From: a virus
Virus genome (UHGV): UHGV-0123328
DNA length: 34,442 nucleotides
Direction: 5' to 3' (one strand)
The notes beneath the pieces are model-generated. The model saw nothing but the letters and a program-made list of their open reading frames with translations, searched no databases and was not told where the DNA came from. Below, piece after piece: positions 1,733 to 19,236 of the stretch (positions within the stretch are counted from its first letter, which is position 1; each line of letters opens with the position of its first letter). The translations under genes and the position numbers were made by a program.

Positions 1733-1902
1733 AGTGTATAAGCGGATCAATGAGTTACGGAAACAGTTAATAATGAGGAGCTTGTAATAAGCTGTATACC
1801 CTAGAAAAGCTAGACTAGGGAATAAAATGACGTGAAACTGGGCGAGACAGTAAATAATTCCGAATGATAATTGAACAAATAACCCCTTGCTCGGAGCTTG
1901 GA

Positions 1903-3093
1903 ATGACTGATACCGCTTTTTCAAAATCGTTACAAAAAGAAGTCGATCCTGAGCAGTACTTGGCGCTAAAGAATTTAGATGACAGCTCGGTTCATGCTAT
2001 TGCCCGTGACGATATCATCTGCCCCATTTGCAAAGTTGGAGGTGGTTCGTTCGTTAGAGCCACTAGGAATGGTGGCTATCACAAGAAGGCGCATTTCAGA
2101 TTTACCGGTGAAGATGGTCAAGGCCATCATCCATCATGTGATTTCTATGGAGATAGACTAACATCTGAGGTGAAGCAGCACCTTGTCTCATTCACAAAAG
2201 ATCGAACAAAGTATTCGCAGGTAATACGAAAGCTGGTCTGTGCCGGCATACAGGAAGGGATATTTACTCAAGAAAAAATGTGGCAGATGAGGGAATGGTT
2301 CTTCAATAAGCGAAAGGATTCCACATTTGAAATATGGTTAGAAAGCGAGCATTTAGACTGGCTTTATTATATTAGTGGGTTACGTGATGCATATCTAGCA
2401 TGGACAACTCCTGATATTCTACCTTTCGCGCCCATTCAGGTTACTGTGCCTGGTTTTTCTTGGAAGCGTGCGATTGACAAAGAGGTGCTAAGAGTTCACA
2501 TCAAGACTCTCCAGCAATTGCGTGAAATTTCAGTCTCACATAGAGACATTGCTGTAATCTTAGAACACATAAACAATAATCGTGACCGCACAATTCTCGA
2601 TCCATCGCATTTGGAGGACGAGATAAGTAAGACCTATAAGCTTACTAGTTTTGTGATGGGCAATTACATTGAGTTTCAGACAAAAACGGTTAGCGACAGA
2701 GCATACGGGGAAGCTAAGTTTCTGGCATTTGCAGCACTTTTGTTGTTCGTGTCAGATTGGGACCTCAACATTGCTATTGGTAAGTTTTCTAAGATTGCCA
2801 GAGTGAAGGAGGTTGATGACATGCTGGCTGGTAATTTCATTGGTCTTAATCCTTACTTCCGATACGACCTGGCTAATGCAGTGAAGAGATTGCAGGATAA
2901 CTGGCCGATTGAATACCAAGAGTTGGAGCATTGGAATGTTGAGAAATCCATGCGTGACGCATATGAAAAGTGGCGTGCGACAGAGCCTGAATTCGCTCCA
3001 CCCCTATTGCCAGACTTGTATATTGCCAAACATGAGAAAGAAGTCGCACAAGACGAGCAAGTCAGGCAGTGGATTGAGAACGGGGATGTTTGA
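1903..3093 (+). CDS. Hypothetical protein with N-terminal Cys/His cluster (396 aa from ATG 1903; alternative ATG 1864 gives 409 aa)
   Basis: Long ORF in a roughly 42% GC region; GGAG 6 nt upstream of ATG 1903. N-terminal CPIC…H…HHPSC arrangement suggests a zinc-binding ribbon. No other motif recognised. Confidence 0.6.
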   Translation: MTDTAFSKSLQKEVDPEQYLALKNLDDSSVHAIARDDIICPICKVGGGSFVRATRNGGYHKKAHFRFTGEDGQGHHPSCDFYGDRLTSEVKQHLVSFTKDRTKYSQVIRKLVCAGIQEGIFTQEKMWQMREWFFNKRKDSTFEIWLESEHLDWLYYISGLRDAYLAWTTPDILPFAPIQVTVPGFSWKRAIDKEVLRVHIKTLQQLREISVSHRDIAVILEHINNNRDRTILDPSHLEDEISKTYKLTSFVMGNYIEFQTKTVSDRAYGEAKFLAFAALLLFVSDWDLNIAIGKFSKIARVKEVDDMLAGNFIGLNPYFRYDLANAVKRLQDNWPIEYQELEHWNVEKSMRDAYEKWRATEPEFAPPLLPDLYIAKHEKEVAQDEQVRQWIENGDV

Positions 3094-3229
3094 GTGTAAT
3101 TAGCTTAATCAATCAGTTGATAATGGCGGTCACAATTTGATTCTTTTCTATAAGAATCCGTTGATCGCCACTACTCTTCTTCCATACCTGCAATCATACC
3201 CTTAAATATCAATAGGTTACTGTTGTTTA

Positions 3230-3990
3230 AGCCAATAAGAAAACAACTAAATAACAGATCAACGAAACATCAACGCTTTCACCCGATTTGGTCTAAAAAA
3301 TTGACGTTTTCACACATCACTGCTTATACCCGTAATTCTACACAGCAGACAGCGCCACAGCGTCCAATTTTCACCACAGACGACCCAACACACTACCAAC
3401 AAAAACACACGCTCAAAATCGCTCCCGTTGCGTTACACAACCATATAAACAACTTATTTTCAGGTATAACAAAACAACTAAATAACACATATGCCATTCC
3501 CCATAACAACCAACCTCTTTATGGCAGGCTACCGAAAAGACCCACCTCTTCTTCTCAGGCTATCGGACAACCAACCTAACTTTCACAGGCAATCCGAAAA
3601 CATTCATACGCGCAATACCCACGACACGCCATTACCCAAACAGCGAAGAAACACCAGAATCACTGAAACCCCAACGAAGCCTGTAACCGCAAGGTTTCTC
3701 TCAATCCCAAAAGACACGAAACATAACAATCACGGGAAACGCCATTACCCAATACACGAATAACTACAAAAGCCCTTCACGCACTCCAGACAAACAACTC
3801 AAACACAATAACGAAAGCAATCGCCCACCTGCCATTACTCCATACACGGAGAAGAACAATCACCAAAACGACGAGAACACCCCATAGAAGAACCACCGCA
3901 AAACGAACGAAACCACATACACCGACAGAGAGAACAACACGCCCAATTCACCAACAGAAATAGTCGCCGTATAGAACGTTCTGGAAGGGG
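3230..3990 (+). other. A+C-rich, G-depleted non-coding tract with three copies of a GCCATTAC(C/T)C-N-ATACACG motif
   Basis: Extreme strand compositional skew visible by eye. Motif copies at about 3626-3641, 3738-3758 and 3829-3849. Only low-complexity ORFs on the plus strand and none of 60 aa or more on the minus strand. Confidence 0.6.
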
Positions 3991-4174
3991 GTGAGCATTA
4001 ACGCCTATAGAGAGGTTGAGACAGATAAAACACGAAGAAAACACAACATGTATAGCGAAGAAGCAAGGTATGTATAAGTGGGGAGGGAAGGAGGGGTGTC
4101 GCCTCCTTTTTCGTATTTATTCAACTCCTGATTTTATCCCCCGTAACACCCCTACGGTCAGCCTTCGGTCCATA

Positions 4175-4309
4175 CAGGGAAAAGGCTGCATCCCGCTACA
4201 GAAACGGCTGGGTTGCCTTCGGGGAACGGCTGGGGATTTTCAGGGAAACGGTCGAGTTGCCTGTGTGGATTTCGGGAAAAGGCTCGATGCCGGTTCAGGA
4301 ACGGCGGCG
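4175..4309 (+). repeat. Iteron-like direct repeat array 1 (six copies of C(A/G)GGRAAMRGC at 21-32 bp spacing)
   Basis: Copies start at 4175, 4199, 4220, 4241, 4273 and 4296: cagggaaaaggctg, cagaaacggctgg, cggggaacggctgg, cagggaaacggtcg, cgggaaaaggctcg, caggaacggcggcg. Confidence 0.7.
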
Positions 4310-4622
4310 TACCGGTATAGCGAGAGGGAGAGTTGCGGCTACCCACCTGTAATGTGCGGGAAGAAGAGAGGCGCTCACGTGCAGGCGAACTTACTTACCG
4401 CTGGATTCCCTCTGAATGCCCAGCTACAGCGTAATTGTGCCAGACAGCCAACGGGTCACAATCGATTTCAGTAGGTTTTCGGGGAGATGATTATTCTGCC
4501 CACCAGCCACCTTCGGCCACTAAATCAGAATAATGTAAAAAGTGTACTCGGTACTGAACCTGAAAACTCACTGCCAAAACCACATTCACCGGAATAAAAT
4601 CCTTTTTCGCCTGTGCGTTATT

Positions 4623-4660
4623 GCGATAATAACACCAACGAGAAAACAAGTTGTTTAAGG
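4623..4660 (+). promoter_or_regulatory. Conserved promoter/operator-like module, copy 1 (GCGATAAT…AGAAAACAAGTTGTTTAAGG; palindrome 4644-4656)
   Basis: Nearly identical to the copies at 6760-6796 and 7245-7284. Palindrome AAACA-agt-TGTTT ends 12 nt before ATG 4669. Confidence 0.6.
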
Positions 4661-4668
4661 ATTGCTTT

Positions 4669-4998
4669 ATGTTTGCAAATATCGACATCAACCAAATCAA
4701 GAAATTAACTCAAAAAGAGTTTGATCAGTTTTATGAGTTAGAAGGTTGGTCTTCCACTCTGATCAATTCGCGGTGGGTGCTTGAGCTGATGACTCGTGAT
4801 GACGCACCTGCTTTGATGATTTGCGACATGGGTGAAGATGCTGACTTTATGGATATGAGCGAATTTTGTGTGGACACATACAACCGCAGCCAGAAGTACT
4901 ACTTCACATGCGATAGCGAAAATGACGTGATTTCTAAGGTCTATCTTCACCTCGTCCAGCATTGGGACGTTCAGGAGTTTCTTGAAGTATTCGAGTAA
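4669..4998 (+). CDS. Hypothetical small protein (109 aa; ORF track starts at TTG 4651)
   Basis: ORF with AAGGA Shine-Dalgarno 8 nt upstream of ATG 4669; conserved upstream module; stem-loop 5008-5026 downstream. Confidence 0.6.
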   Translation: MFANIDINQIKKLTQKEFDQFYELEGWSSTLINSRWVLELMTRDDAPALMICDMGEDADFMDMSEFCVDTYNRSQKYYFTCDSENDVISKVYLHLVQHWDVQEFLEVFE

Positions 4999-5007
4999 CC
5001 CCAACCA

Positions 5008-5034
5008 AAGCCAGCATTGCTGGCTTAATTTCTC
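5008..5034 (+). terminator. Stem-loop / putative terminator (AAGCCAGC-att-GCTGGCTT followed by a T-rich run)
   Basis: 8-bp perfect stem and T-rich tail, 10 nt after the stop at 4998. Confidence 0.5.
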
Positions 5035-5151
5035 TATAGCCGCAGGGAAGAACCTGCATATCGCTCATGCACCTGATCAATATGCTTTGTAGCCGTTTTC
5101 TTACTGGTATTATTTACGCCATTGAGAAAACAAGTTGTTTACGGAGTTGTG

Positions 5152-5463
5152 ATGAAAAAATCATTGGTTCTTGGTCTGGACAAAGACCAGAAGAGAAAAG
5201 AGAAGCCTGCACTGGTTGCTCAATTAACTTTGCTAGACATCGTTGCCAATGGAACCTCTATTCGTCTGTTCCGTGAAACAGCGGTGTCTTTCGATAAAAA
5301 CACCTTTACTCGTTATGTAATGAATGTTCGTCGCCAGCGTGGAAAAGGCTGGATGGCATTTCAAAGAATGTGGCCGGAACATCAGCTCGAACTGGCTTTG
5401 ATGGAAGTTAACCGCGTGGCCCAGCAAGAAATTCAGAGAGCATCAGTGATGGCAATAGCCTGA
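5152..5463 (+). CDS. Hypothetical small basic protein (103 aa; ORF track start 5122)
   Basis: ACGGAG Shine-Dalgarno 5 nt upstream of ATG 5152; AAACA-agt-TGTTT palindrome at 5128-5140; terminator downstream. Confidence 0.6.
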   Translation: MKKSLVLGLDKDQKRKEKPALVAQLTLLDIVANGTSIRLFRETAVSFDKNTFTRYVMNVRRQRGKGWMAFQRMWPEHQLELALMEVNRVAQQEIQRASVMAIA

Positions 5464-5497
5464 TAATGTGCAAGTGGTAATTAGTCGACAGTACGAC

Positions 5498-5527
5498 AGC
5501 CCCGCCATCCTTACGGGGCTTTTTTGT
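5498..5527 (+). terminator. Rho-independent terminator
   Basis: AGCCCCG-ccatcctta-CGGGGCT followed by TTTTTTG. Confidence 0.7.
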
Positions 5528-5589
5528 ATTGTAAGTACATACTTACGATCATAGAATAGAAAAATAACCAATACACTACGGAGAGTGAA

Positions 5590-5985
5590 ATGACCGTTAA
5601 ACGCGAAAAACTGACAGTTGATGTTTACTATGCCTCTGAAACCGCCGAAGGTAAGAATGTGGCAAAAATCACCGTTGTTACGTACAACACCGAAACTGGT
5701 GCCGAAGTCCAGGCCAGTACGATCGTGCGTAAAGGTGATGCCTCCGGCGGCGAGTACGCGACTCAATACCAGTCTATTTTCGATGCAACTGACCCGCTGC
5801 TGCTGAAAATCGAGAACTACTTCCGCCAGGTTGATGAAGAGGTGTTTGAACCAATGATGAATATGGTTAACACCGTATTCGCCTCCAACCTGAATACCAA
5901 CACTACCTGGATTGGTCAGTACGGCCTGCGCATTACCTCTGGCATTCCTGCCGACACCTTAATCCCTGAAAGCGTATTCGCTTAA
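5590..5985 (+). CDS. Hypothetical protein (131 aa)
   Basis: ORF with GGAG Shine-Dalgarno; preceded by the GTAAGTA-ca-TACTTAC palindrome (5531-5546); hairpin plus T-run downstream (5994-6024). Confidence 0.6.
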   Translation: MTVKREKLTVDVYYASETAEGKNVAKITVVTYNTETGAEVQASTIVRKGDASGGEYATQYQSIFDATDPLLLKIENYFRQVDEEVFEPMMNMVNTVFASNLNTNTTWIGQYGLRITSGIPADTLIPESVFA

Positions 5986-5993
5986 TCCTCTTT

Positions 5994-6024
5994 AAATGGC
6001 GCGCAAACCGCGCCATTTTATTAT
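5994..6024 (+). terminator. Rho-independent terminator
   Basis: AAATGGCGCG-caaac-CGCGCCATTT followed by TATTAT. Confidence 0.65.
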
Positions 6025-6102
6025 GCCCGATAACAATTTGTTTTCTGCCTTATCTGATTTGTGAAAATGATTTCACTGAAGCAACTTAATAAGGAAACCA
6101 TC

Positions 6103-6477
6103 ATGGGACTTGATATCTATATCGAGACACAGCCTAAAAACGATCTGAATAACGAGGCATCCAGAAAGCAGGTTGCTTACTTCCGTAAGTTCAATGCGCT
6201 CGTTGGGTGGATGGAGCGCAACGTAGGTGAAGTCGAAAATTGTGAGCTTTTAGAATTAACGATGAATGACATTTGTTTTCTGAAGGCTCATTTGATGCAC
6301 ATAAACGAAAGTAATTGCGAAGAGTACTTGCCTACCCGGGAAGGTTTTTTCTTCGGCAGTCAGGAGTACGATGAAGGTTACTGGCATGATGTGGGGCAGT
6401 TGAAAGAGCTTGTGGAAGATCTGATTAAGAACCACGACTTTCACAATAACAGACTGACCTTCTGCGCCTGGTGGTAA
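6103..6477 (+). CDS. Hypothetical protein (124 aa from ATG 6103; ORF track starts at GTG 6061, alternative ATG 6067)
   Basis: Strong TAAGGAAACC Shine-Dalgarno before ATG 6103; AACA-att-TGTTT palindrome at 6031-6043 upstream. Confidence 0.55.
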   Translation: MGLDIYIETQPKNDLNNEASRKQVAYFRKFNALVGWMERNVGEVENCELLELTMNDICFLKAHLMHINESNCEEYLPTREGFFFGSQEYDEGYWHDVGQLKELVEDLIKNHDFHNNRLTFCAWW

Positions 6478-6479
6478 AT

Positions 6480-6623
6480 ATGGGCGATTTCAAGAAACGC
6501 CTGAAGGAAAGAGCCGAGATGGTCAGAAAGCAAAACGCCTCTTCTGTCATCAGATACGCAAGGCAGTTTAGTCGCAACAACAAATCAGTTGAGGAAAAGA
6601 TCCTTAGCGTAATCGGGCGATAA
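6480..6623 (+). CDS. Possible small basic protein (47 aa), translationally coupled to the preceding gene
   Basis: ATG 6480 lies 2 nt after the upstream stop; Lys/Arg-rich ORF ending immediately before stem-loop 6627-6654. Not in the ORF track because it is under 60 aa. Confidence 0.3.
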   Translation: MGDFKKRLKERAEMVRKQNASSVIRYARQFSRNNKSVEEKILSVIGR

Positions 6624-6626
6624 TTA

Positions 6627-6654
6627 TTAAGACCACCAGCATTGGTGGTCTTAA
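6627..6654 (+). terminator. Stem-loop TTAAGACCACCA-gcat-TGGTGGTCTTAA (putative terminator or RNA processing/stability element)
   Basis: 12-bp perfect stem. A covarying twin occurs at 7098-7125. Confidence 0.5.
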
Positions 6655-6759
6655 ATGACTTTTAATAACCGAAGGTTAGTTTGAAACCTGGCTATCAACT
6701 TCCAGAACCTTTCTTGTGTATTCAGCCTGTATTAACTTCTTTTATGCCTTATCTACACT

Positions 6760-6796
6760 GCGATAATTACACCAACAAGAAAACAACATGTTTACG
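6760..6796 (+). promoter_or_regulatory. Conserved promoter/operator-like module, copy 2 (palindrome AAACA-aca-TGTTT at 6781-6793)
   Basis: GCGATAATTACACCAACAAGAAAACAACATGTTTACG; near-identical to copies at 4623-4660 and 7245-7284. Confidence 0.6.
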
Positions 6797-6812
6797 CAGT
6801 GAGGATATGCTC

Positions 6813-7094
6813 ATGACTGATTTCACCATTACCCCTAAAGCACAAAATGTATTTCTTGAATCATGGCTGGACTTGCCGGAAACAGAACAGCAAGAAATGG
6901 ATCATGTGGATTATGACGAGCAGGTAAGCACGCGATTCTTCCACTTTGAGGGCTGCGTTTACGACATTGCCGACTTCATGCGAGATGACCGCTTCCCTGA
7001 ATGGCACGCCAGTTATCCACTAAACGCCTTCGCCATGCTGATGATCCGTGTGGGTGATTCAGGGGATACCATCGACATCGGTCTGCTCCACTAA
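6813..7094 (+). CDS. Hypothetical small acidic protein (93 aa; ORF track start 6681)
   Basis: GAGGA Shine-Dalgarno 7 nt upstream of ATG 6813; conserved module upstream; stem-loop downstream. Confidence 0.55.
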   Translation: MTDFTITPKAQNVFLESWLDLPETEQQEMDHVDYDEQVSTRFFHFEGCVYDIADFMRDDRFPEWHASYPLNAFAMLMIRVGDSGDTIDIGLLH

Positions 7095-7097
7095 AGA

Positions 7098-7125
7098 TTA
7101 AGGCCACCAATGCTGGTGGCCTTAA
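7098..7125 (+). terminator. Stem-loop TTAAGGCCACCA-atgc-TGGTGGCCTTAA
   Basis: 12-bp perfect stem, compensatory to the 6627-6654 copy (A:T pair replaced by G:C). Confidence 0.5.
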
Positions 7126-7244
7126 ATGACCATCCTGTTTCCCGCAGGCTAAAAACACCAACCTCTTACCTCCAGGCAACCGACAAACCCACCTGTTCCC
7201 GTCCGGCTACCGCAACTTTCCACTTTGACGCCTTATTCGTACAA

Positions 7245-7284
7245 CGATAATTAACGCCAACAAGAAAACAATTTGTTATTTACG
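7245..7284 (+). promoter_or_regulatory. Conserved promoter/operator-like module, copy 3 (palindrome 7266-7278)
   Basis: ACGATAATTAACGCCAACAAGAAAACAATTTGTTATTTACG upstream of ATG 7299. Confidence 0.6.
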
Positions 7285-7298
7285 ATAAGGAATTAATC

Positions 7299-7781
7299 AT
7301 GAATTTTATCGCTACTGTAAACGCACCCGCACATGGCAATATCGCTGTAACGTTCTCTGACATTGAAAAACGAGTACTTGGTGCCTGGCGTCACAATGAG
7401 ACGGTAGAACTGTCAGAACAAGAAAAATGCATTATTGCACGCGACATCATTGGCAATCGTCGTTACTCGCGGGTATTTGAGAAAGCATATGTGGTAAATT
7501 CTGGGTTCGGAACGTTCGTCTTTCCGGTGCGCTCAGGGCGATTCTGCCAGTCCAAGCTGATTGAGTTCGCTACGCAGATTTCTGTCTGGATTAAAACTCA
7601 ATCGTCGTTCAAATTTTCCGACGATGAAGCAGTATCGCAGGGGATGCGGATCGCCAACAATGCGATTAAATGCAAAAACATTACGTATACCGCTGGCGTT
7701 GATACATGGAAACTGTTTTGCGCTAACTTTATGCTGAATGTATACGCAAGCAACCGCATCCACATCCTTGATGGCGTGTAA
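7299..7781 (+). CDS. Hypothetical protein (160 aa)
   Basis: TAAGGA Shine-Dalgarno 7 nt upstream; conserved module upstream; terminator 7790-7813 downstream. Confidence 0.65.
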   Translation: MNFIATVNAPAHGNIAVTFSDIEKRVLGAWRHNETVELSEQEKCIIARDIIGNRRYSRVFEKAYVVNSGFGTFVFPVRSGRFCQSKLIEFATQISVWIKTQSSFKFSDDEAVSQGMRIANNAIKCKNITYTAGVDTWKLFCANFMLNVYASNRIHILDGV

Positions 7782-7789
7782 CTGAGAAG

Positions 7790-7813
7790 AGGGCCAGAAA
7801 CGGCCCTTTCTCT
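7790..7813 (+). terminator. Rho-independent terminator
   Basis: AGGGCC-agaaac-GGCCCT followed by TTCTCT. Confidence 0.6.
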
Positions 7814-7830
7814 ATAGCCACCAGCTGCCG

Positions 7831-7910
7831 CAGGGAAATTTTCAGAAACGGCGAGGAACGTATTCATGAGCCGACGGGAAACGGCCAGGATTTTTTCGGG
7901 AAACGGCGGG
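7831..7910 (+). repeat. Iteron-like direct repeat array 2 (four copies; same family and orientation as 4175-4309)
   Basis: cagggaaatt, cagaaacggcgagg, cgggaaacggccagg, cgggaaacggcggg. Extended match GGATTTT(TT)C(A/G)GGGAAACGG shared with array 1. Confidence 0.7.
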
Positions 7911-8335
7911 GGTCGCCTTTATGTAGAAAACTGAGCGGGAGAAACCCGGAATCGCGCCAGAAATTGCGTAGCGGCGCTGGGGTATCGCTGGTGGGGGTTT
8001 CAGCCCCTGGGCCATCCAGATAGCTTTCGCTATGTGATTATGTGAATCCGTGGGTAAATCACTGTAAGCGCGTACACGTTGCCCAACGTGGCAATCATAT
8101 GCGAGCGGACACAGAACAACACAAAATGCCGATCCGCGCCGACAATTAAACGCGGATCACATAGCAAGAATAAAAGCCAATGATTAACCATACACCATAA
8201 CGCAATATAACGCGATTTAAGCGCGTTAATGCGCTAAGTAATGGGTATGTACTGGTAAGGATATAAAAGCGCGTCTATGGCGTTATTTTGGCGCTTATTT
8301 TTATGTTGTTGGAGTGAGTTAAAGACAATAAAAAA

Positions 8336-8401
8336 GCGCCATCATTGGCGCGTTATGGTGGGAGTATTGGAAACGAAAAAAGCGCCCACAGTGGGCGCTC
8401 G
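8336..8401. terminator. Pair of GC-rich hairpins (GCGCCA-tcat-TGGCGC and AGCGCCCA-ca-TGGGCGCT) flanked by A and T runs; likely bidirectional terminators
   Basis: Perfect stems with AAAAAA 5' and, for the second, TTTTATTT 3'. Same family as the hairpin at 8653-8669. Confidence 0.55.
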
Positions 8402-8404
8402 ATT

Positions 8405-8682: not shown

Positions 8683-9333
8683 TTACGCTTTGAAAGCATC
8701 AGCCAGATAGTTATAGAAATCATTTTTAATAAAGCGATATTGCTGAGTGCCAGCTTTGGCGCTCCCAGCTCCTTTGACTTTTTCAACAAGTCCCAGACGT
8801 TCGCAAAGATTGATAAGCTGGTTGGCTTGAGTGTATCCTGCGTCTAATTTTATTTCGTTGGCTTTTTTCGCTTCATTCATTAAATCGAAAACAGCGCCAT
8901 TTGTGAACGTCTCGATCTCGTCGTTAATCATATCGATTAATGCGAATACACGAGATCCGGACATATCAGCGACGGAATAAACACACTTTCCAGCTTTAAT
9001 GGATTTAACCAGATAAACCAGTTTTTCCAGAGAATAACTGTTAGTCATTGCATCACGGAAAAAAACTTCTGGCGCTTGTTTGCTTGCTTTGATCGCATAG
9101 TAGAAAACAGAGCATAATTTTTCGTCTTCTACAGCGTTTACAACGTTGTTGATGAAGTAAGCAAGTTTAGTGGTCGCAGCTTGCATATTTGCTTTGTCTG
9201 CTTTAGTGTGCGTACCATTTTTATAATGTTCGTTATATGTTTGAGTTGCCAGATCTGCTTTTTCGCGCAGTTCATCGGATACAATGGAAGCAGCTTCAAT
9301 GATGGATTTTTTAGAAATGATAATGTTAGTCAT
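8683..9333 (-). CDS. Hypothetical protein (216 aa), AT-rich moron-like gene
   Basis: Clean ORF of about 40% GC with its own upstream intergenic region (9334-9570); hairpin 8653-8669 immediately downstream. Confidence 0.6.
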   Translation of the reverse strand: MTNIIISKKSIIEAASIVSDELREKADLATQTYNEHYKNGTHTKADKANMQAATTKLAYFINNVVNAVEDEKLCSVFYYAIKASKQAPEVFFRDAMTNSYSLEKLVYLVKSIKAGKCVYSVADMSGSRVFALIDMINDEIETFTNGAVFDLMNEAKKANEIKLDAGYTQANQLINLCERLGLVEKVKGAGSAKAGTQQYRFIKNDFYNYLADAFKA

Positions 9334-9614: not shown

Positions 9615-10136
9615 TTAAAACGGAAGGATTCGTTCAACCCAATCGAAGAAAATAAGAATTTTTCTGCCGTCTTTCAACTTAAGTGTGACTAGGCAGGCAT
9701 CAACGCCATCTGACGTTCCCTCAATTTCGCGGCCGTCTGCCATGTAGACCCTTATAGATTGGCCGTTTTGATAAGCCTTGCGACATATCTTAAAAAAATC
9801 ACGACGTGATGGCTGGTTGTCTACATAGTCAGGGTGTATTGTTAGTCTCCCTTTGAAATCGTAATCAATGCCATCAATTACGCCTGATTCAATTGTGCTA
9901 ATGCGCTCAAGTGGGAGCCTTATACGATTTTCTTTGTCAAATGGAGTTGGACAAAGGTCAACTTTGTTACGAGATGACATGAGACCATAAACGTACATGC
10001 AAAACACTTGGCCGTCTTCGAGAGTGACTCTTACAGGAAATTTAGCCCCCCGCCAGAAGAGCAAGGTGCGTTCAGCATGTTCGTAGTCTCGCGGCCATAC
10101 TTCAGCCGGTATGCCGTAGGTGATGTCTTTAACCAT
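9615..10136 (-). CDS. Hypothetical protein (173 aa) with an internally repeated (R)VxLxDG motif
   Basis: ORF with its own terminator. Motifs VRVTLEDGQ, IRVYMADGR and VTLKLKDGR suggest repeated small beta-rich units. Confidence 0.6.
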   Translation of the reverse strand: MVKDITYGIPAEVWPRDYEHAERTLLFWRGAKFPVRVTLEDGQVFCMYVYGLMSSRNKVDLCPTPFDKENRIRLPLERISTIESGVIDGIDYDFKGRLTIHPDYVDNQPSRRDFFKICRKAYQNGQSIRVYMADGREIEGTSDGVDACLVTLKLKDGRKILIFFDWVERILPF

Positions 10137-13982: not shown

Positions 13983-14663
13983 ATGGATGTAAAAATCACG
14001 ATTTTGCAGGTTGATGTTGCCAACCTTCGCCCGAATACCTGGAACACCAATTCGGTTGGTGCGCAGAATTTTGAAAAACTGAAAGGTTCTATCGAAAAAT
14101 TGGGCTTTTTTAAGCCAATTTTGGCTCGTGAACTTGAAGATGGATTTTTTGAAATCCTCGGCGGCGAACATCGCTGGCGTGCTGCTATTGAGCAAGGAAT
14201 TTCAACGGTTCCGGTGCTTTCTGTGGGCAAAATTAGCGATGTCGTAGCTAAACAGATGTCACTGGTGGACAACGAGCGATACGGTGAAGACGACCAAATC
14301 GCATTGCAACGCTTCATTGAAGAAATTCAGTCAGAACTTGACTATCAACTGTCTGAAATCGCCCCGTATGACGACGAAATCTCGATGGTTTTAGCAAAAG
14401 AGGCGGCAATCGACCTTGAAGCACTGGAGGCGTTGTCTCGTGGTAGTGATGAGCCTGTCGATACCGACAAACGAGAGAAAACCGAACGTGTCGGTGCGGA
14501 ACATCAGACCATGCGCTTCAAAGTAACTTTCGATGCGTCAGATCGCGTTGCAGAAACCATAAAAAACATCATCAAAGACCAGGCAATTAATACTGGCAAT
14601 GAAATGGAAAACGCTGGTGAGGCTCTGGTGTGGCTGGTCGACTACTACAAGGAGCGTATGTAA
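13983..14663 (+). CDS. ParB/Srx N-terminal-domain protein 1 (227 aa from ATG 13983; ORF track starts at GTG 13965)
   Basis: ParB-like N-terminal signature region (…FEILGGEHRWRAAIEQGISTVPV…); acidic C-terminal half. Confidence 0.65.
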   Translation: MDVKITILQVDVANLRPNTWNTNSVGAQNFEKLKGSIEKLGFFKPILARELEDGFFEILGGEHRWRAAIEQGISTVPVLSVGKISDVVAKQMSLVDNERYGEDDQIALQRFIEEIQSELDYQLSEIAPYDDEISMVLAKEAAIDLEALEALSRGSDEPVDTDKREKTERVGAEHQTMRFKVTFDASDRVAETIKNIIKDQAINTGNEMENAGEALVWLVDYYKERM

Positions 14664-15331
14664 TGACCAAAAAGTTTGAAATCGTATATCGCGACCCGGC
14701 AGATCTTATTCCCTATGAGATGAATGCCAAAAAGCATGATGAACAGCAGATCCGAGATCTGGCCGCAGCCATTAAAAAGCGCGGATTTGACCAGCCAATT
14801 ACGGTCGATAAGAACGACGTAATTATTACTGGCCACGGCCGCCGTGAGGCTGCAATTTTTGCTGGACTTGAGCGCGTACCGGTTATTGTTCGCGATGATC
14901 TCAGTGATGACGAGGTTCGTGCGAAGCGCCTTGAAGATAACCGACTTGCCAGCATTGATTACGATGCAATTAAGCTACAGAAAGAGCTTGAGTCGCTTGT
15001 TCTGGACGATATCGAGGTTTTCGGCTTCGAAGAGCGTGAGTTGAATGTTCTCGTTGGCAGTATGACAGAAGAAATGGACACCGACTCGCTAGTTATCGAT
15101 CTTGGCGAAGAAACTAAACGACAGAAGGATGAACACACCGAGATCAGTCGTGAAGTTGCAGCGGAAGAAGTACGTGTTGTCGACGTATTGGGCTTTAAAA
15201 CGCTCCCTGCTGGCTCTGCCATTGTTGTTGGTGATTTGCTTGCCCATATGGAAGAAATGACGGGAGAAAGCGGGGTAGACGCATTTGTGGCATATGCGGA
15301 GAAGATCTCTTCCGGGGAGATGGCTGCATGA
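14663..15331 (+). CDS. ParB/Srx N-terminal-domain protein 2 (222 aa; ORF track start 14630)
   Basis: …ITGHGRREAAIFAGLERVPVIV… ParB-like motif. ATG overlaps the upstream stop (TAATG), with AAGGAG Shine-Dalgarno. Confidence 0.65.
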   Translation: MTKKFEIVYRDPADLIPYEMNAKKHDEQQIRDLAAAIKKRGFDQPITVDKNDVIITGHGRREAAIFAGLERVPVIVRDDLSDDEVRAKRLEDNRLASIDYDAIKLQKELESLVLDDIEVFGFEERELNVLVGSMTEEMDTDSLVIDLGEETKRQKDEHTEISREVAAEEVRVVDVLGFKTLPAGSAIVVGDLLAHMEEMTGESGVDAFVAYAEKISSGEMAA

Positions 15332-15993
15332 GCAAATACATCATCAACGTATCGTTTCAGACACGCGTAAATAAAACCACGCGCACGTTGGAAATCGCTG
15401 AGTCGTTCGGGCTTGGCCTGGACGAAAAAGAGTGGACGCTTTACGACAATCTGGAGCTGGAAGTGAAGCAGGGCGATGTGGTGTACATCACCGGCCAATC
15501 CGGTTCCGGCAAATCCGTTGTGCTGCGCGAGTTGCAACGACAGATGAAGGATGAAGGGCTGTCTGTAGCCTCCATCGATGATTTTACCTTCGATAATGAG
15601 GTTAACGTCATCGATCAGTTGGGCAAAACGACCAGTGATGCGCTTGGGTTGTTATCTATGGCTGGTCTGAACGATGCATATCTGTTTGTTCGCAAGCCTT
15701 CTGAAATGTCAGACGGCCAGAAATATCGTCTCAAGATTGCCAAACTGATTGAGTCAGGCGCTAAAGTATGGGCTGCTGACGAGTTCGGCGCTGTTCTCGA
15801 CCGTGTAACCGCTCAGGTTGTGGCGTCTAACCTCCAGCGTGCCGCTCGAAAGGTTGGTGCGACGGTAATGGTGGCGACGACTCACGAAGACCTGAAGAAC
15901 GCGCTGCGCCCTGATATGCAGATCACCAAGCACTACAAAGAACGCGTGAAGGTGGAATATCACAATGGTAGTCATGATGAGGTCCATTCATGA
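15328..15993 (+). CDS. Minimal ABC-type ATPase (221 aa, nucleotide-binding domain only)
   Basis: Walker A GQSGSGKS, ABC signature-like MSDGQKYRL, Walker B VWAADEF and H-loop ATTHE in canonical order. Start overlaps the upstream stop (ATGA). Confidence 0.7.
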   Translation: MSKYIINVSFQTRVNKTTRTLEIAESFGLGLDEKEWTLYDNLELEVKQGDVVYITGQSGSGKSVVLRELQRQMKDEGLSVASIDDFTFDNEVNVIDQLGKTTSDALGLLSMAGLNDAYLFVRKPSEMSDGQKYRLKIAKLIESGAKVWAADEFGAVLDRVTAQVVASNLQRAARKVGATVMVATTHEDLKNALRPDMQITKHYKERVKVEYHNGSHDEVHS

Positions 15994-16607
15994 CGGACAT
16001 CATCATTAAACGCTACCGCCCTGAAGAGTTTCCGCGTCATCTGGACTTTCTGGAGCGAATGACTGTTACAAAGGGAACTGTAGAGGACTGGCACGCTCTT
16101 AAGTCGCTTCACTACAAAACAGACGGCAAACCTTTCGCGCCAACTTACTATCGCTGCGAACTTGATGACCGTCTGGTGGGCGTCGTGGTTATGGCTTACC
16201 CGAAACTACTGTTGGCACCTCGCCACCGCATGTTTCCTAAGTTGAAACCAACCACTAATACCACCGTGGCTAACCAGTACTGGGGTCGGTACGTGAATAA
16301 CAACTTTGCGGTGATCAGTCGCTCAGTTGTGGATACTCAGTATCGTGGCGTAGGCGTCTCTTATAGAATGATTAACCTGGTTAGCAGGATGCATGACCGG
16401 CCAATCATTGAGATCCAGTCCTCGATGAGCAAATACAATCCCTTCGCCATGAAAGCAGGGTTTAAGTTCATCCGCCCTGAGCGACCGAAGAGCTATGAAA
16501 GTGCACTGCGTGTATTCCAGCGCCATTTCCGTTCCGACCCGGGTGATAACGAGGCGATCGTCAAAGAGTTGTTCGCAATGAGCGAGTCTCGTCGTCGCCG
16601 TGCGTGA
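15990..16607 (+). CDS. GNAT-fold (acetyltransferase-like) protein (205 aa)
   Basis: Motif-A-like VVDTQYRGVGVSYRMINLV and motif-B-like NPFAMKAGFKFI. Start overlaps the upstream stop (ATGA). Confidence 0.5.
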   Translation: MTDIIIKRYRPEEFPRHLDFLERMTVTKGTVEDWHALKSLHYKTDGKPFAPTYYRCELDDRLVGVVVMAYPKLLLAPRHRMFPKLKPTTNTTVANQYWGRYVNNNFAVISRSVVDTQYRGVGVSYRMINLVSRMHDRPIIEIQSSMSKYNPFAMKAGFKFIRPERPKSYESALRVFQRHFRSDPGDNEAIVKELFAMSESRRRRA

Positions 16608-17347: not shown

Positions 17348-17980
17348 ATGACGGTCGAAAAAGACGAGGTAAAAACTCGCCTGACACCAGCGGAGTGGGC
17401 CGAAGCTGAAGCCAAATGGACGTCAGGCGAATATACACTCTCAAAGCTGGAGGAAGAGTACGGCATTCGTCGTGAAACACTCTCCAGACATTTCAAAAAG
17501 CGAGGATTAGAGAAAGGCGCGGACTCTGTTGGGAAGATGGTTCGTGAGTCTCTTAAATCTGACGCAGAGCTTCGCGCTAAAGCCCGTGCGGAAAAGATAG
17601 AAGAACGTCGTACACGTTATGACGGCTGGGCGTATGCGTTGGGGCAGATGGTGATGGTCGAAGTCACTACGGCCAAACGTGAGGGTAAGCCTTTAGGGGC
17701 GATTGAGGATTCTCTCAAGAGCTTACAGAGAGCCAGTAATACCCTTGCAAAATGCTTTGAAGTTTCGTCCAAAGCATTGGGCATGGATCATGCGGAAAAT
17801 GACGAGGAAGAAATTCCGAACCTGGTATTTGGTGAGCTTACGCCTTCCCAGGTGGCGAAATTACGTCAGGAAGACGACGAGCCTGAAATCATCGATGACG
17901 AATTGCTTGAGACGTTGGAAGAAGAAGCTCTAAGCGAATTTGATGCGACAGATGATGGAAGTGAAGGGGAGGACGAATAA
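17348..17980 (+). CDS. Terminase small subunit (210 aa), putative
   Basis: Immediately upstream of and overlapping the large terminase (TAATG). N-terminal helix-turn-helix-like segment (YTLSKLEEEYGIRRETLSRHFKKRG) and strongly acidic C-terminus. Confidence 0.6.
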   Translation: MTVEKDEVKTRLTPAEWAEAEAKWTSGEYTLSKLEEEYGIRRETLSRHFKKRGLEKGADSVGKMVRESLKSDAELRAKARAEKIEERRTRYDGWAYALGQMVMVEVTTAKREGKPLGAIEDSLKSLQRASNTLAKCFEVSSKALGMDHAENDEEEIPNLVFGELTPSQVAKLRQEDDEPEIIDDELLETLEEEALSEFDATDDGSEGEDE

Positions 17981-19236
17981 TGGCAATCCCGTCCTCGCTC
18001 AGTCTTGTGCAACTGCATTCTGGACAGATGAAAGTCTTCCAGTCTCCGCATCGATTTAAAGTTGTTTGTGCTGGTCGACGCTGGGGAAAATCCCGGTTGT
18101 CGATCTCCACTATTATTCGTGCGGCGGCAAAGGAAAAAAAGCAAAGAGTCTGGTATGTCGCTCCTACTTACCAGATGGCTCGCCAGATTTTGTGGGACGA
18201 TCTACAGGAAGTTCTGCCTCGTAAGTGGGTTAGGAAAAAGAACGACACCACGATGACAATCGTGTTGAAGAACGGTTCGGAGATCGCCCTCAAAGGTGCT
18301 GATAAGCCTGACACTCTGCGCGGCGTAGCGTTGCATTTTGTAGTGCTTGATGAATTTCAGGATATGAAGGCTGACACCTGGTACAAGGTGTTACGACCTA
18401 CTCTTTCATCGACACGCGGCGGTGCACTGATCATTGGTACGCCAAAAGGCTTCTCGGAATTTCACAAACTGTGGACTATAGGCCAGAACGTAGAGCTGCA
18501 AAGAAAGGGACAGTGGAAGAGCTGGCAGTTTGTAACTGCCGATTCTCCGTTTGTACCTACGGCGGAAATTGAAGCTGCTAAGAACGATATGGACCCGAAA
18601 TCGTTCGCTCAGGAGTACCTGGCGAGCTTTGAGAACATGTCAGGGCGCGTTTACTACCCGTTCGATCGTAACGTGCATGTAAAACCGCTTCAGTTCAACC
18701 CTCGGTTGCCTATATGGGTAGGGCAGGACTTCAACATTGACCCGATGTCTTCAGTAATTTTGCAACCTCAGCCAAATGGTGAGCTATGGGCAATTGATGA
18801 ATTGGTGCTCTTTTCCTCTAACACGGCAGAGGTTTGTGATGAGCTTGAGAGACGCTTCTGGCGCTGGAAATCACAGATAACGGTATTTCCAGATCCGGCA
18901 GGTGCTTATCGCCAACATGCTCGCGGGGAGTCTGACGTCGACATATTCAAAGAGAAGGGATTCTTACGTGTCGATTATTCGAAAAAGCACCCGCCAATTG
19001 CGGATCGTGTTAATGCTGTTAACCGAATGCTGATGACCGCATCTGGAGATATCCGGCTGTATATCGATCCGAAGTGCAAGCATTTGATTGATTCACTGGA
19101 AAAAGTCATCTACAAGCCTGGAACACGAGATATGGATAAGACAGGTGGCATTGAGCATAGTGCAGACGCATTGGGCTATCCAGTACATCGTAGGTATCCA
19201 GTCAAAAACCGTGTTATTCTTGGTGGTTCTCGATAG
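17980..19236 (+). CDS. Terminase large subunit (418 aa)
   Basis: Walker A VCAGRRWGKS and Walker B HFVVLDEF in the N-terminal ATPase; Asp-rich RNase H-like C-terminal nuclease region; position before the portal gene. Confidence 0.85.
   Translation: MAIPSSLSLVQLHSGQMKVFQSPHRFKVVCAGRRWGKSRLSISTIIRAAAKEKKQRVWYVAPTYQMARQILWDDLQEVLPRKWVRKKNDTTMTIVLKNGSEIALKGADKPDTLRGVALHFVVLDEFQDMKADTWYKVLRPTLSSTRGGALIIGTPKGFSEFHKLWTIGQNVELQRKGQWKSWQFVTADSPFVPTAEIEAAKNDMDPKSFAQEYLASFENMSGRVYYPFDRNVHVKPLQFNPRLPIWVGQDFNIDPMSSVILQPQPNGELWAIDELVLFSSNTAEVCDELERRFWRWKSQITVFPDPAGAYRQHARGESDVDIFKEKGFLRVDYSKKHPPIADRVNAVNRMLMTASGDIRLYIDPKCKHLIDSLEKVIYKPGTRDMDKTGGIEHSADALGYPVHRRYPVKNRVILGGSR

Follow-up and report, generated by a model that had tools for sequence, protein, structure and literature searches.

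A conserved pair of phased, non-coding repeat arrays in SSU5/pHCM2/pMT1-type phage-plasmids

The window considered here is the whole 34,442-nucleotide stretch of the UHGV virus genome UHGV-0123328, which represents an SSU5/pHCM2-type phage-plasmid of the SSU5/pHCM2/pMT1 family. The replicon type of the element is IncFIB. Over bases 3400-8300 it matches Escherichia phage Cyrano (OV696614), which is the phage-plasmid pLF82 of E. coli LF82, at 98% identity and the E. coli plasmid p88COLEC-2 at 98.3%; Salmonella phage SSU5 and Klebsiella phage-plasmids are more distant relatives of this segment. Two arrays of short direct repeats, 3.6 kb apart and of the same polarity, lie within it on either side of a block of small genes. 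They are a real, conserved, non-coding pair of phased repeat arrays. A first-pass annotation, made from the letters of the window alone, had described two same-orientation, regularly phased direct-repeat arrays in non-coding DNA, and this description is confirmed, with every unit on the + strand and a 22-bp register. The arrays are composed as follows:

4175-4305, + strand: array 1, six direct repeats in a 22/22/22/31/22-bp register
4175-4186, + strand: array 1 unit 1, CAGGGAAAAGGC
4199-4208, + strand: array 1 unit 2, CAGAAACGGC
4220-4230, + strand: array 1 unit 3, CGGGGAACGGC
4241-4252, + strand: array 1 unit 4, CAGGGAAACGGT
4273-4283, + strand: array 1 unit 5, CGGGAAAAGGC
4296-4305, + strand: array 1 unit 6, CAGGAACGGC
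7831-7907, + strand: array 2, a 12/33/22-bp register of three full repeats and a truncated one
7831-7839, + strand: array 2 truncated unit, CAGGGAAAT, its CAGGG invariant in relatives
7843-7852, + strand: array 2 full unit, CAGAAACGGC
7875-7885, + strand: array 2 full unit, CGGGAAACGGC
7897-7907, + strand: array 2 last full unit, CGGGAAACGGC, preceded by a TTTT that is nearly invariant in relatives

The consensus of the units is Y-R-GGGAAA-M-GGC (the GGGAAACGG type). The six copies first proposed for array 1 can be read directly, although the array ends at 4305 rather than 4309; array 2 is likewise present, but as three full units and a truncated one instead of four equal copies. When unit-to-unit spacings are anchored on the RAAMGG core, all of them (12, 22, 31, 33-34 and 43-44 bp) fall near whole numbers of helical turns. 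Two unit subtypes, GGGAAAAGGC(TGG) and (C)AG(G)AAACGG(G/T), alternate, which gives a true super-period of about 44 bp. The spacer of each 22-bp unit also holds a conserved patch smaller than the core, (T)GCC/CCG. The extended match between the arrays that had been noticed at the outset is genuine, with 4215-4251 and 7870-7906 sharing 76% identity across 37 nt. An extra GAAACGGC copy is present at 7797-7804, in the loop of a hairpin just upstream of array 2.

The clustering of the motif is well above chance. The window contains 13 GRAAMGGC matches where 5.2 +/- 2.0 are expected, a count reached by none of 100 shuffles, and nine of the 13 fall within the two array loci, all on the + strand. The same two loci hold 9 of the 20 matches in the complete 108,379-bp Cyrano genome, which contains no third GRAAMGGC cluster. 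One-mismatch copies of the 8-mer number 36 in the window against 25 expected (one of 100 shuffles reaches 36). The related copy that the first-pass annotation had placed near 3733-3743 does exist, as a lone GGGAAACGCC at 3734-3743, but it is not counted in the element because it is isolated and the one-mismatch copies are only modestly enriched and lie mostly outside the arrays. A pattern search of viral contigs for GGGAAACGG-N8-30-GGGAAACGG returned SSU5-like loci that, among the matches listed, were all at 22-bp spacing; the listed matches at other spacings are taken as chance.

The arrays are widely distributed among related elements. Of the plasmid records, 713 carry the array-1 region and 769 the array-2 region. 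These records are from Escherichia, Klebsiella, Enterobacter, Salmonella, Citrobacter and Cronobacter, and the array-2 set alone also includes 55 from Yersinia (pMT1). The plasmid pHCM2 of S. Typhi is among the carriers, and pMT1 of Y. pestis keeps array 2 and has no array 1. In 15 divergent representatives the motif columns of array 2 are 95% identical, the spacers 76% and the rest of the surrounding gap 77% (invariant columns: 59% in the motif vs 16%). Array 1 keeps its 22/22/22/31/22 register across genera despite diverged spacers, and its copy number varies from 3 to 6 among relatives in steps of whole 22- or 44-bp units. The virion-forming phage SSU5 has both arrays in the same architecture. 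In a distant relative from Klebsiella quasipneumoniae, GAAACGG-type arrays persist at both places although the identity of the neighbouring proteins is down to 30-54%.

The best explanation of these patterns is that a single non-coding cis-element, specific to SSU5/pHCM2/pMT1-type phage-plasmids, is present as two paralogous copies, the two arrays. Since pMT1 has no array 1, replication and partition of the plasmid do not require it, provided that pMT1 is stably maintained. The arrays belong to the phage core of the SSU5-type phage-plasmids and not to the RepA/Par plasmid module. No description of these repeats was found in the literature searched on the origins, iterons and packaging ends of SSU5, pHCM2 and pMT1, and on Cyrano and PhiR41.

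An open reading frame (ORF) of 152 aa (4016-4474) spans array 1 and is annotated in OV696614 as the hypothetical coding sequence (CDS) CYRAN_104, which would make the repeats part of a gene. The ORFs on array 1 and on the A+C-rich stretch upstream of it have no PHROG or Pfam family, unlike the real small genes, each of which has its own PHROG, and PGAP calls no gene over array 1. No reading frame stays open across near and far relatives, the CYRAN_104 frame being already broken in one that is 98% identical, and the gain or loss of 22-bp units would shift any frame. Public hypothetical CDSs across array 1 are CYRAN_104 (OV696614; 9670-10074 of L001) and SSU5_109 (JQ965645; 2113-2310 of L218), and both calls are most likely spurious. 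Degenerate coding sequence, which had been named at the outset as a finding that would refute the binding-site interpretation, is excluded by these results. Together with a chance cluster, which the clustering counts and the cross-genus conservation rule out, it can be given next to no credence.

The arrays are set in a context which is itself conserved and, in part, repeated. The flanking features are:

3150-4050, + strand: about 900 bp of A+C-rich non-coding DNA (A 0.39, C 0.30, G 0.14, T 0.18)
4085-4112, + strand: intrinsic-terminator-like hairpin, a 10-pair stem followed by the TTTTTCGTATTTATT T-run, conserved in all relatives
4113-4174, + strand: conserved leader from the terminator to array 1 (ATTTATTCAAsTCCTGATTTTATCCCCCGTAAC...)
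7788-7809, + strand: G+C-rich hairpin directly 3′ of the 160-aa gene, AGAGGGCC-agaaac-GGCCCTTT, read from the sequence
7908-8404: rest of the conserved 620-bp non-coding gap after array 2

The leader is the best-conserved part of the array-1 region and is 80-87% identical even in Klebsiella elements. The hairpin at 7788-7809 is terminator-like with a weak T-tract, carries GAAAC(GG) in its loop and is conserved in relatives; it was unflagged by the terminator scan. Each array is preceded by a hairpin or terminator and is followed by a TAT(A)G...G(C)GGGAG segment, a likeness read by eye and unscored. Three tandem 30-bp repeats (ACCNACCT-N9-CAGGCTAYCG...) occur twice, at 3509-3599 and 7129-7216, each triplet 670-700 bp upstream of one GGGAAACGG array. 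Since both arrays share the hairpin, the downstream segment and the 30-bp triplet, a larger module appears to have been duplicated.

The terminator hairpin at 4085-4112 closes the A+C-rich stretch upstream of array 1. This stretch has a GC skew of -0.44 and an AT skew of up to +0.58, a composition that nearly all relatives share, and lysogens do not express it. A long unstructured CA-rich RNA, as an Hfq/Sm target or a Rho-loading zone, is one possible explanation, and a strand-asymmetric DNA element is another. At the other end of the locus, the 620-bp gap is conserved at 65-96% throughout, Y. pestis pMT1 included. It contains a perfect palindrome, ACGTTGC-CCAACGT (about 8078-8092), AAGCGCG/AACGCG repeats (8190-8300) and three minus-strand terminator-like hairpins. 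RNAalifold gave the part of the gap after array 2 a positive, penalising covariation term and hence no RNA-structure support.

The genes of the window around the arrays are ordered as follows:

21-1271: methionyl-tRNA synthetase gene, 3′ part
1864-3093: 409-aa gene
3094-4668: stretch of about 1.5 kb unannotated by NCBI PGAP
4669-7781, + strand: seven small genes
7782-8404: 620-bp gap between convergent genes
After the gap, - strand: group of 76-aa, 216-aa and FljA-family genes and, farther on, a UvsW-like helicase
Beyond this group: two ParB-N-domain genes, an ABC-type ATPase, terminase genes and the virion module
17348-19236: terminase genes, with terS at 17348-17980

Among relatives, the small-gene block enclosed by the arrays ranges in length from 1.4 to 4.4 kb and holds one to five promoter/operator units. 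Repeated segments of 55-76 bp, each ending in the palindrome GAAAACAAnnTGTTT, lie at 4601-4664, 5085-5139, 6726-6801 and 7223-7279, with an inverted occurrence at 6027-6046, and each small gene of the block is preceded by its own such segment. The GAAAACAAnnTGTTT segments resemble a shared promoter joined to an operator that a dimeric repressor would bind, and they also look suited to cassette shuffling.

It had also been suggested that the two arrays mark recombination boundaries of this cassette block, and the variation of its size and of its promoter/operator units while the arrays persist would agree with such a role. However, no deletion or fusion ending in the arrays was seen among relatives: the approximately 85 related loci, gathered via the 160-aa protein adjoining array 2, include no array-array fusion and no single hybrid array. 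The 55-76-bp promoter/operator repeats of each cassette are the more obvious substrate for exchange, and there is no adjacent recombinase gene, the integrase lying at 41 kb in Cyrano, where the arrays are at 95.3 and 99.0 kb. A boundary role is highly improbable on this evidence.

The regular phasing of the units raises the question of plasmid iterons. A 22-bp period and two sets of repeats are typical of RepA-type replicons, and the IncFIB typing would fit an origin or a copy-number/incompatibility locus made of extra RepA iterons, as in P1 oriR/incA. The RepA gene of Cyrano (60,633-61,688) is, however, flanked on both sides by iterons of its own, CTCTCTATAGTGGATA, which have a 21-bp period and are unrelated to GGGAAACGG. 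RepA and these iterons are about 35 kb from the arrays, no GRAAMGGC occurs near repA in Cyrano, and pMT1 lacks array 1. The arrays are distinct from the RepA iterons, and the proposal that they are additional ones is extremely doubtful.

Recognition by the small terminase subunit, at a pac or cosB-like site where packaging starts, was considered as well. Such recognition typically involves multiple phased sites, and the reverse complement of the motif, CCGTTTCCC, contains CGTTTCC. The R sites of lambda cosB, to which gpNu1 binds, have this heptamer as their core. The small terminase of the element is without a Nu1-like Pfam domain, and the terminase genes lie about 9.4 kb downstream of array 2 with opposite-strand operons between. 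Two arrays 3.6 kb apart would not be needed for packaging, and the literature searched gave no DNA-terminus data for the SSU5-type family. A packaging function is, on balance, very unlikely.

The first-pass annotation had read the phasing as a signature of protein-binding sites, and the greater conservation of the cores relative to the spacers upholds this part of its interpretation; identification with plasmid-initiator iterons, origin hallmarks beside the arrays and adjacency to a partition operon are not supported. The arrays may be paralogous sets of binding sites on duplex DNA for a protein encoded by the element, with a role in phage-phase replication or regulation and possibly with bridging of the two sites, a proposal that has about an even chance of being correct. 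Each 22-bp unit would be the docking site for one protomer of a sequence-specific protein. As the units are about two, and in places about three, helical turns apart, the bound protomers would stand on one face of the helix and bind cooperatively, forming a short filament of three to six. Two filaments of the same polarity, 1.4-4.4 kb apart, could pair and loop out the variable small-gene block. Such pairing would resemble the bridging of ori and crr by the P4 alpha protein, or the handcuffing of two iteron sets by iteron initiators. The arrays would act in the phage phase, in one of two ways. One possibility is that a lytic-replication origin or enhancer serving the element's own T4-like replisome has the arrays as its recognition part. 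The other is that the arrays flank the block of early accessory genes and control it.

SSU5-type phage-plasmids occur commonly in clinical Enterobacteriaceae, and the arrays are the clearest conserved cis-acting candidates outside their RepA and Par loci, offering defined targets of about 130 bp and 80 bp. Should they form a second origin, this would account for the amplification of copy number on induction; should they serve control or looping, they would set the regulatory boundary of an accessory-gene hotspot.

Several observations weigh against binding of such a protein to duplex DNA or against its proposed consequences. No binder was identified among the element proteins considered. Looping of the block between the arrays is speculative, and the transcriptome covers lysogens only. 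For the origin in particular, no initiator with a Rep-like domain was found among the genes neighbouring the arrays, and no DnaA box TTATCCACA with one mismatch or fewer is present in or adjacent to either array (the nearest matches of this type, at 6749, 6905 and 7013, are at least 800 bp from array 2). The 40-bp windows by both arrays are 35-65% A+T, with no strongly A+T-rich unwinding element. Two further points in this group are the base changes in predicted stems of array 2 and the phylogenetic distribution of a candidate binder, the 216-aa protein:

8683-9333, - strand: 216-aa protein, coiled-coil N-terminus and winged-helix-like C-terminus, candidate binder

The 216-aa protein, the most evident of the neighbours with a DNA-binding-like domain, is 84-86% identical across genera. 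Its structural model has a predicted local distance difference test (pLDDT) score of 73, and the fold matches are weak (E of 0.07 or worse) and to winged-helix proteins only. A 63%-identical homologue is encoded on a Serratia plasmid with no such arrays within 8 kb. The candidacy of the 216-aa protein is weakened, since this homologue exists without arrays; it is included in the alignment in which the putative recognition-helix residues are invariant. On the Serratia plasmid, which is of the Rep3 type, the homologue lies beside a UvsW-like helicase and a ParB-N protein (L213/L214 7921-8648). This suggests that a mobile cluster of 216-aa, 92-aa-like, helicase and ParB-like proteins is common to unrelated replicons. 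For the 160-aa neighbour of array 2 (7299-7781), no PDB, Pfam or NCBIfam relative was found, profile search included.

The arrays do have the form of iterons, as tandem direct repeats with a period of about 22 bp and a register conserved across genera. Over the complete Cyrano genome, cumulative GC skew increases monotonically and gives no origin signal; such a course would be expected if the skew follows gene orientation, which is mostly + strand. An origin at the arrays is neither supported nor refuted, the usual companion features being absent.

The principal alternative to a duplex-DNA site is an element acting as RNA. The arrays would be transcribed in lytic growth, or by read-through of the preceding hairpin, and would act as targets or decoys of an RNA-binding protein. 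Short stems of 3-4 bp (CCG/CGG) can enclose most units and present GGGAAA in the loop. In an alignment of 18 sequences, the two clearest 4-bp stems, GCCG...CGGC around array-2 units, are 87.5% paired, compared with 7-37% for slid controls. Their outer pairs vary between GC and CG (10/5) and between GC and AU (5/3), which is predicted by an RNA or single-strand element and is not required by duplex DNA. In helix 2, however, 10 of the 18 sequences are unpaired at the outer position, and the inner pairs never vary. The stem pairing is therefore weak support for the RNA or single-strand reading.

Other evidence on structure and expression goes against an RNA. When each array was folded as a single sequence on either strand, the energies did not beat those of shuffles (z = -1.6, +0.7, +0.7 and 0.0). 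Rfam scans at the gathering threshold and at E <= 5 give nothing in the arrays and only chance-level matches elsewhere. The promoter scan found no sigma-70-like site upstream of array 1. In the RNA-seq of LF82 lysogens, CYRAN_104, which covers array 1, has a log2(FPKM+5) of 2.6-4.7 (FPKM, fragments per kilobase per million) where the floor is 2.32, and CYRAN_103 is at the 2.32 floor in lysogens grown in LB (supplementary table, PMC9928086). A sponge would also not be expected to hold its spacers within 1 bp. Most of the evidence, namely the rigid spacer, the near-whole numbers of helical turns, the missing promoter, the near-background expression, the lack of an Rfam match and the folds, favours double-stranded DNA, and an RNA-level function is unlikely.

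The candidate partner of such an RNA is encoded 1.7 kb downstream of array 2:

9615-10136, - strand: FljA-family protein (PF03614, 'repressor of phase-1 flagellin'), candidate binder if the arrays act as RNA

The assignment to PF03614 has an E of 2e-79. The protein is modelled as two tandem Sm/Hfq-like domains (pLDDT 85), each consisting of a helix and five strands, and all 50 of the 50 listed PDB fold matches are Hfq. The FljA-family gene is kept in elements from Klebsiella and Y. pestis. These hosts are generally non-flagellate. Its retention in non-flagellate hosts indicates that the protein probably has a target within the element. Across the SSU5-like elements, the FljA-family gene and the arrays occur together in every one examined, and both are missing from the Serratia relative. 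The FljA-like gene is expressed in lysogens while array 1 is near background, and in LF82 this gene, CYRAN_114, is induced in macrophages, from a log2 value of about 4.2 to about 8.

It has been reported, in work cited in PMC2652032, that Salmonella FljA blocks translation of fliC mRNA. Array 2 (7866-7886) shares an exact 12-mer, TGAGCCGACGGG, followed by GAAAC, with the E. coli K-12 fliC 5′ untranslated region (UTR; L211 2150-2170, - strand), and the fliC 5′ UTR is the target region reported for FljA. This match has the top score in the window, but equal or better-scoring windows occur elsewhere in Cyrano, so that it is not significant genome-wide, and the 12-mer is confined to the Escherichia lineage and not conserved in other genera.

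More specifically, the arrays might be nucleic-acid targets or decoys of the adjacent FljA-family tandem-Sm protein in a circuit private to the SSU5/pHCM2/pMT1 elements, for which the case is distinctly improbable. If it were true, this would be a sponge system like CsrA/CsrB built on a new protein family and carried by a mobile element. The circuit would govern either the block of early accessory genes or the change from one life style, plasmid or phage, to the other, and it might couple to the 900-nt A+C-rich untranslated stretch upstream of array 1. The likeness to the sponge RNAs CsrB and RsmZ, which sequester CsrA-type proteins, lies in the many short purine-rich, GGA-containing motifs about 20 nt apart, possibly in hairpin loops. 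The arrays differ from these RNAs in their rigid spacing, in lacking an Rfam match and a promoter, and in being expressed near background in lysogens.

Known DNA systems provide parallels for protein-binding arrays on duplex DNA. In P4, a single protein, the alpha primase-helicase, binds both ori and crr, which are both needed in cis and are built on the repeat octamer TGTTCACC. The present arrays are similar to P4 ori/crr (type I iterons) in that one short direct repeat forms two clusters, separated by a few kb, on a phage-plasmid-like element. They differ in that no alpha-like protein or initiator gene is found nearby. The iteron origins of RepA, RepE and pi (P1 oriR with incA, F, R6K and pSC101) share with the arrays a period of about 22 bp, three to seven copies and, often, two sets that can be handcuffed. 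In contrast, the RepA of this element has other iterons, and the arrays have no DnaA box, AT-rich element or adjacent rep gene. Bacillus phage SPP1 has two separate clusters of initiator-binding direct repeats (G38P boxes), oriL and oriR. In SPP1 the boxes are next to AT-rich DNA and the initiator gene contains oriL; the present arrays show neither feature.

The ParB family supplies the last comparison and two further candidate binders, ParB-like proteins having been proposed as such already in the first-pass annotation. The half-sites of this family are read by helix-turn-helix domains. Its sites include the Noc-binding site (NBS) ATTTCCCGGGAAAT, with the half-site GGGAAAT, parS TGTTTCACGTGAAACA, with the half-site GTGAAAC, and P1 parS box A. 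The array core GGGAAAC is intermediate in sequence between the NBS and parS half-sites, and two ParB N-domain proteins are encoded 6 kb away. Canonical ParB and Noc sites are palindromes bound by dimers, whereas the arrays are direct repeats only, and neither the window nor the Cyrano genome contains the motif in palindromic or inverted form. ParA, at 29.3 kb in Cyrano, is not beside the arrays. The candidate pair lies at:

13983-15331, + strand: two adjacent ParB N-terminal-domain proteins of 226 and 222 aa (13983-14663 and 14663-15331), possible binders

Both align to Spo0J/ParB/Noc structures, the first of the two at E = 3e-9, and the Spo0J alignment reaches the helix-turn-helix region only weakly. 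The cytidine triphosphate (CTP)-binding box is present in the versions GEHRWRA and GHGRREA. Both genes belong to an operon at 13983-16607, directly upstream of the terminase genes, which also encodes the ABC-type ATPase and a further protein of about 200-300 aa and which is conserved in pMT1 and pHCM2.

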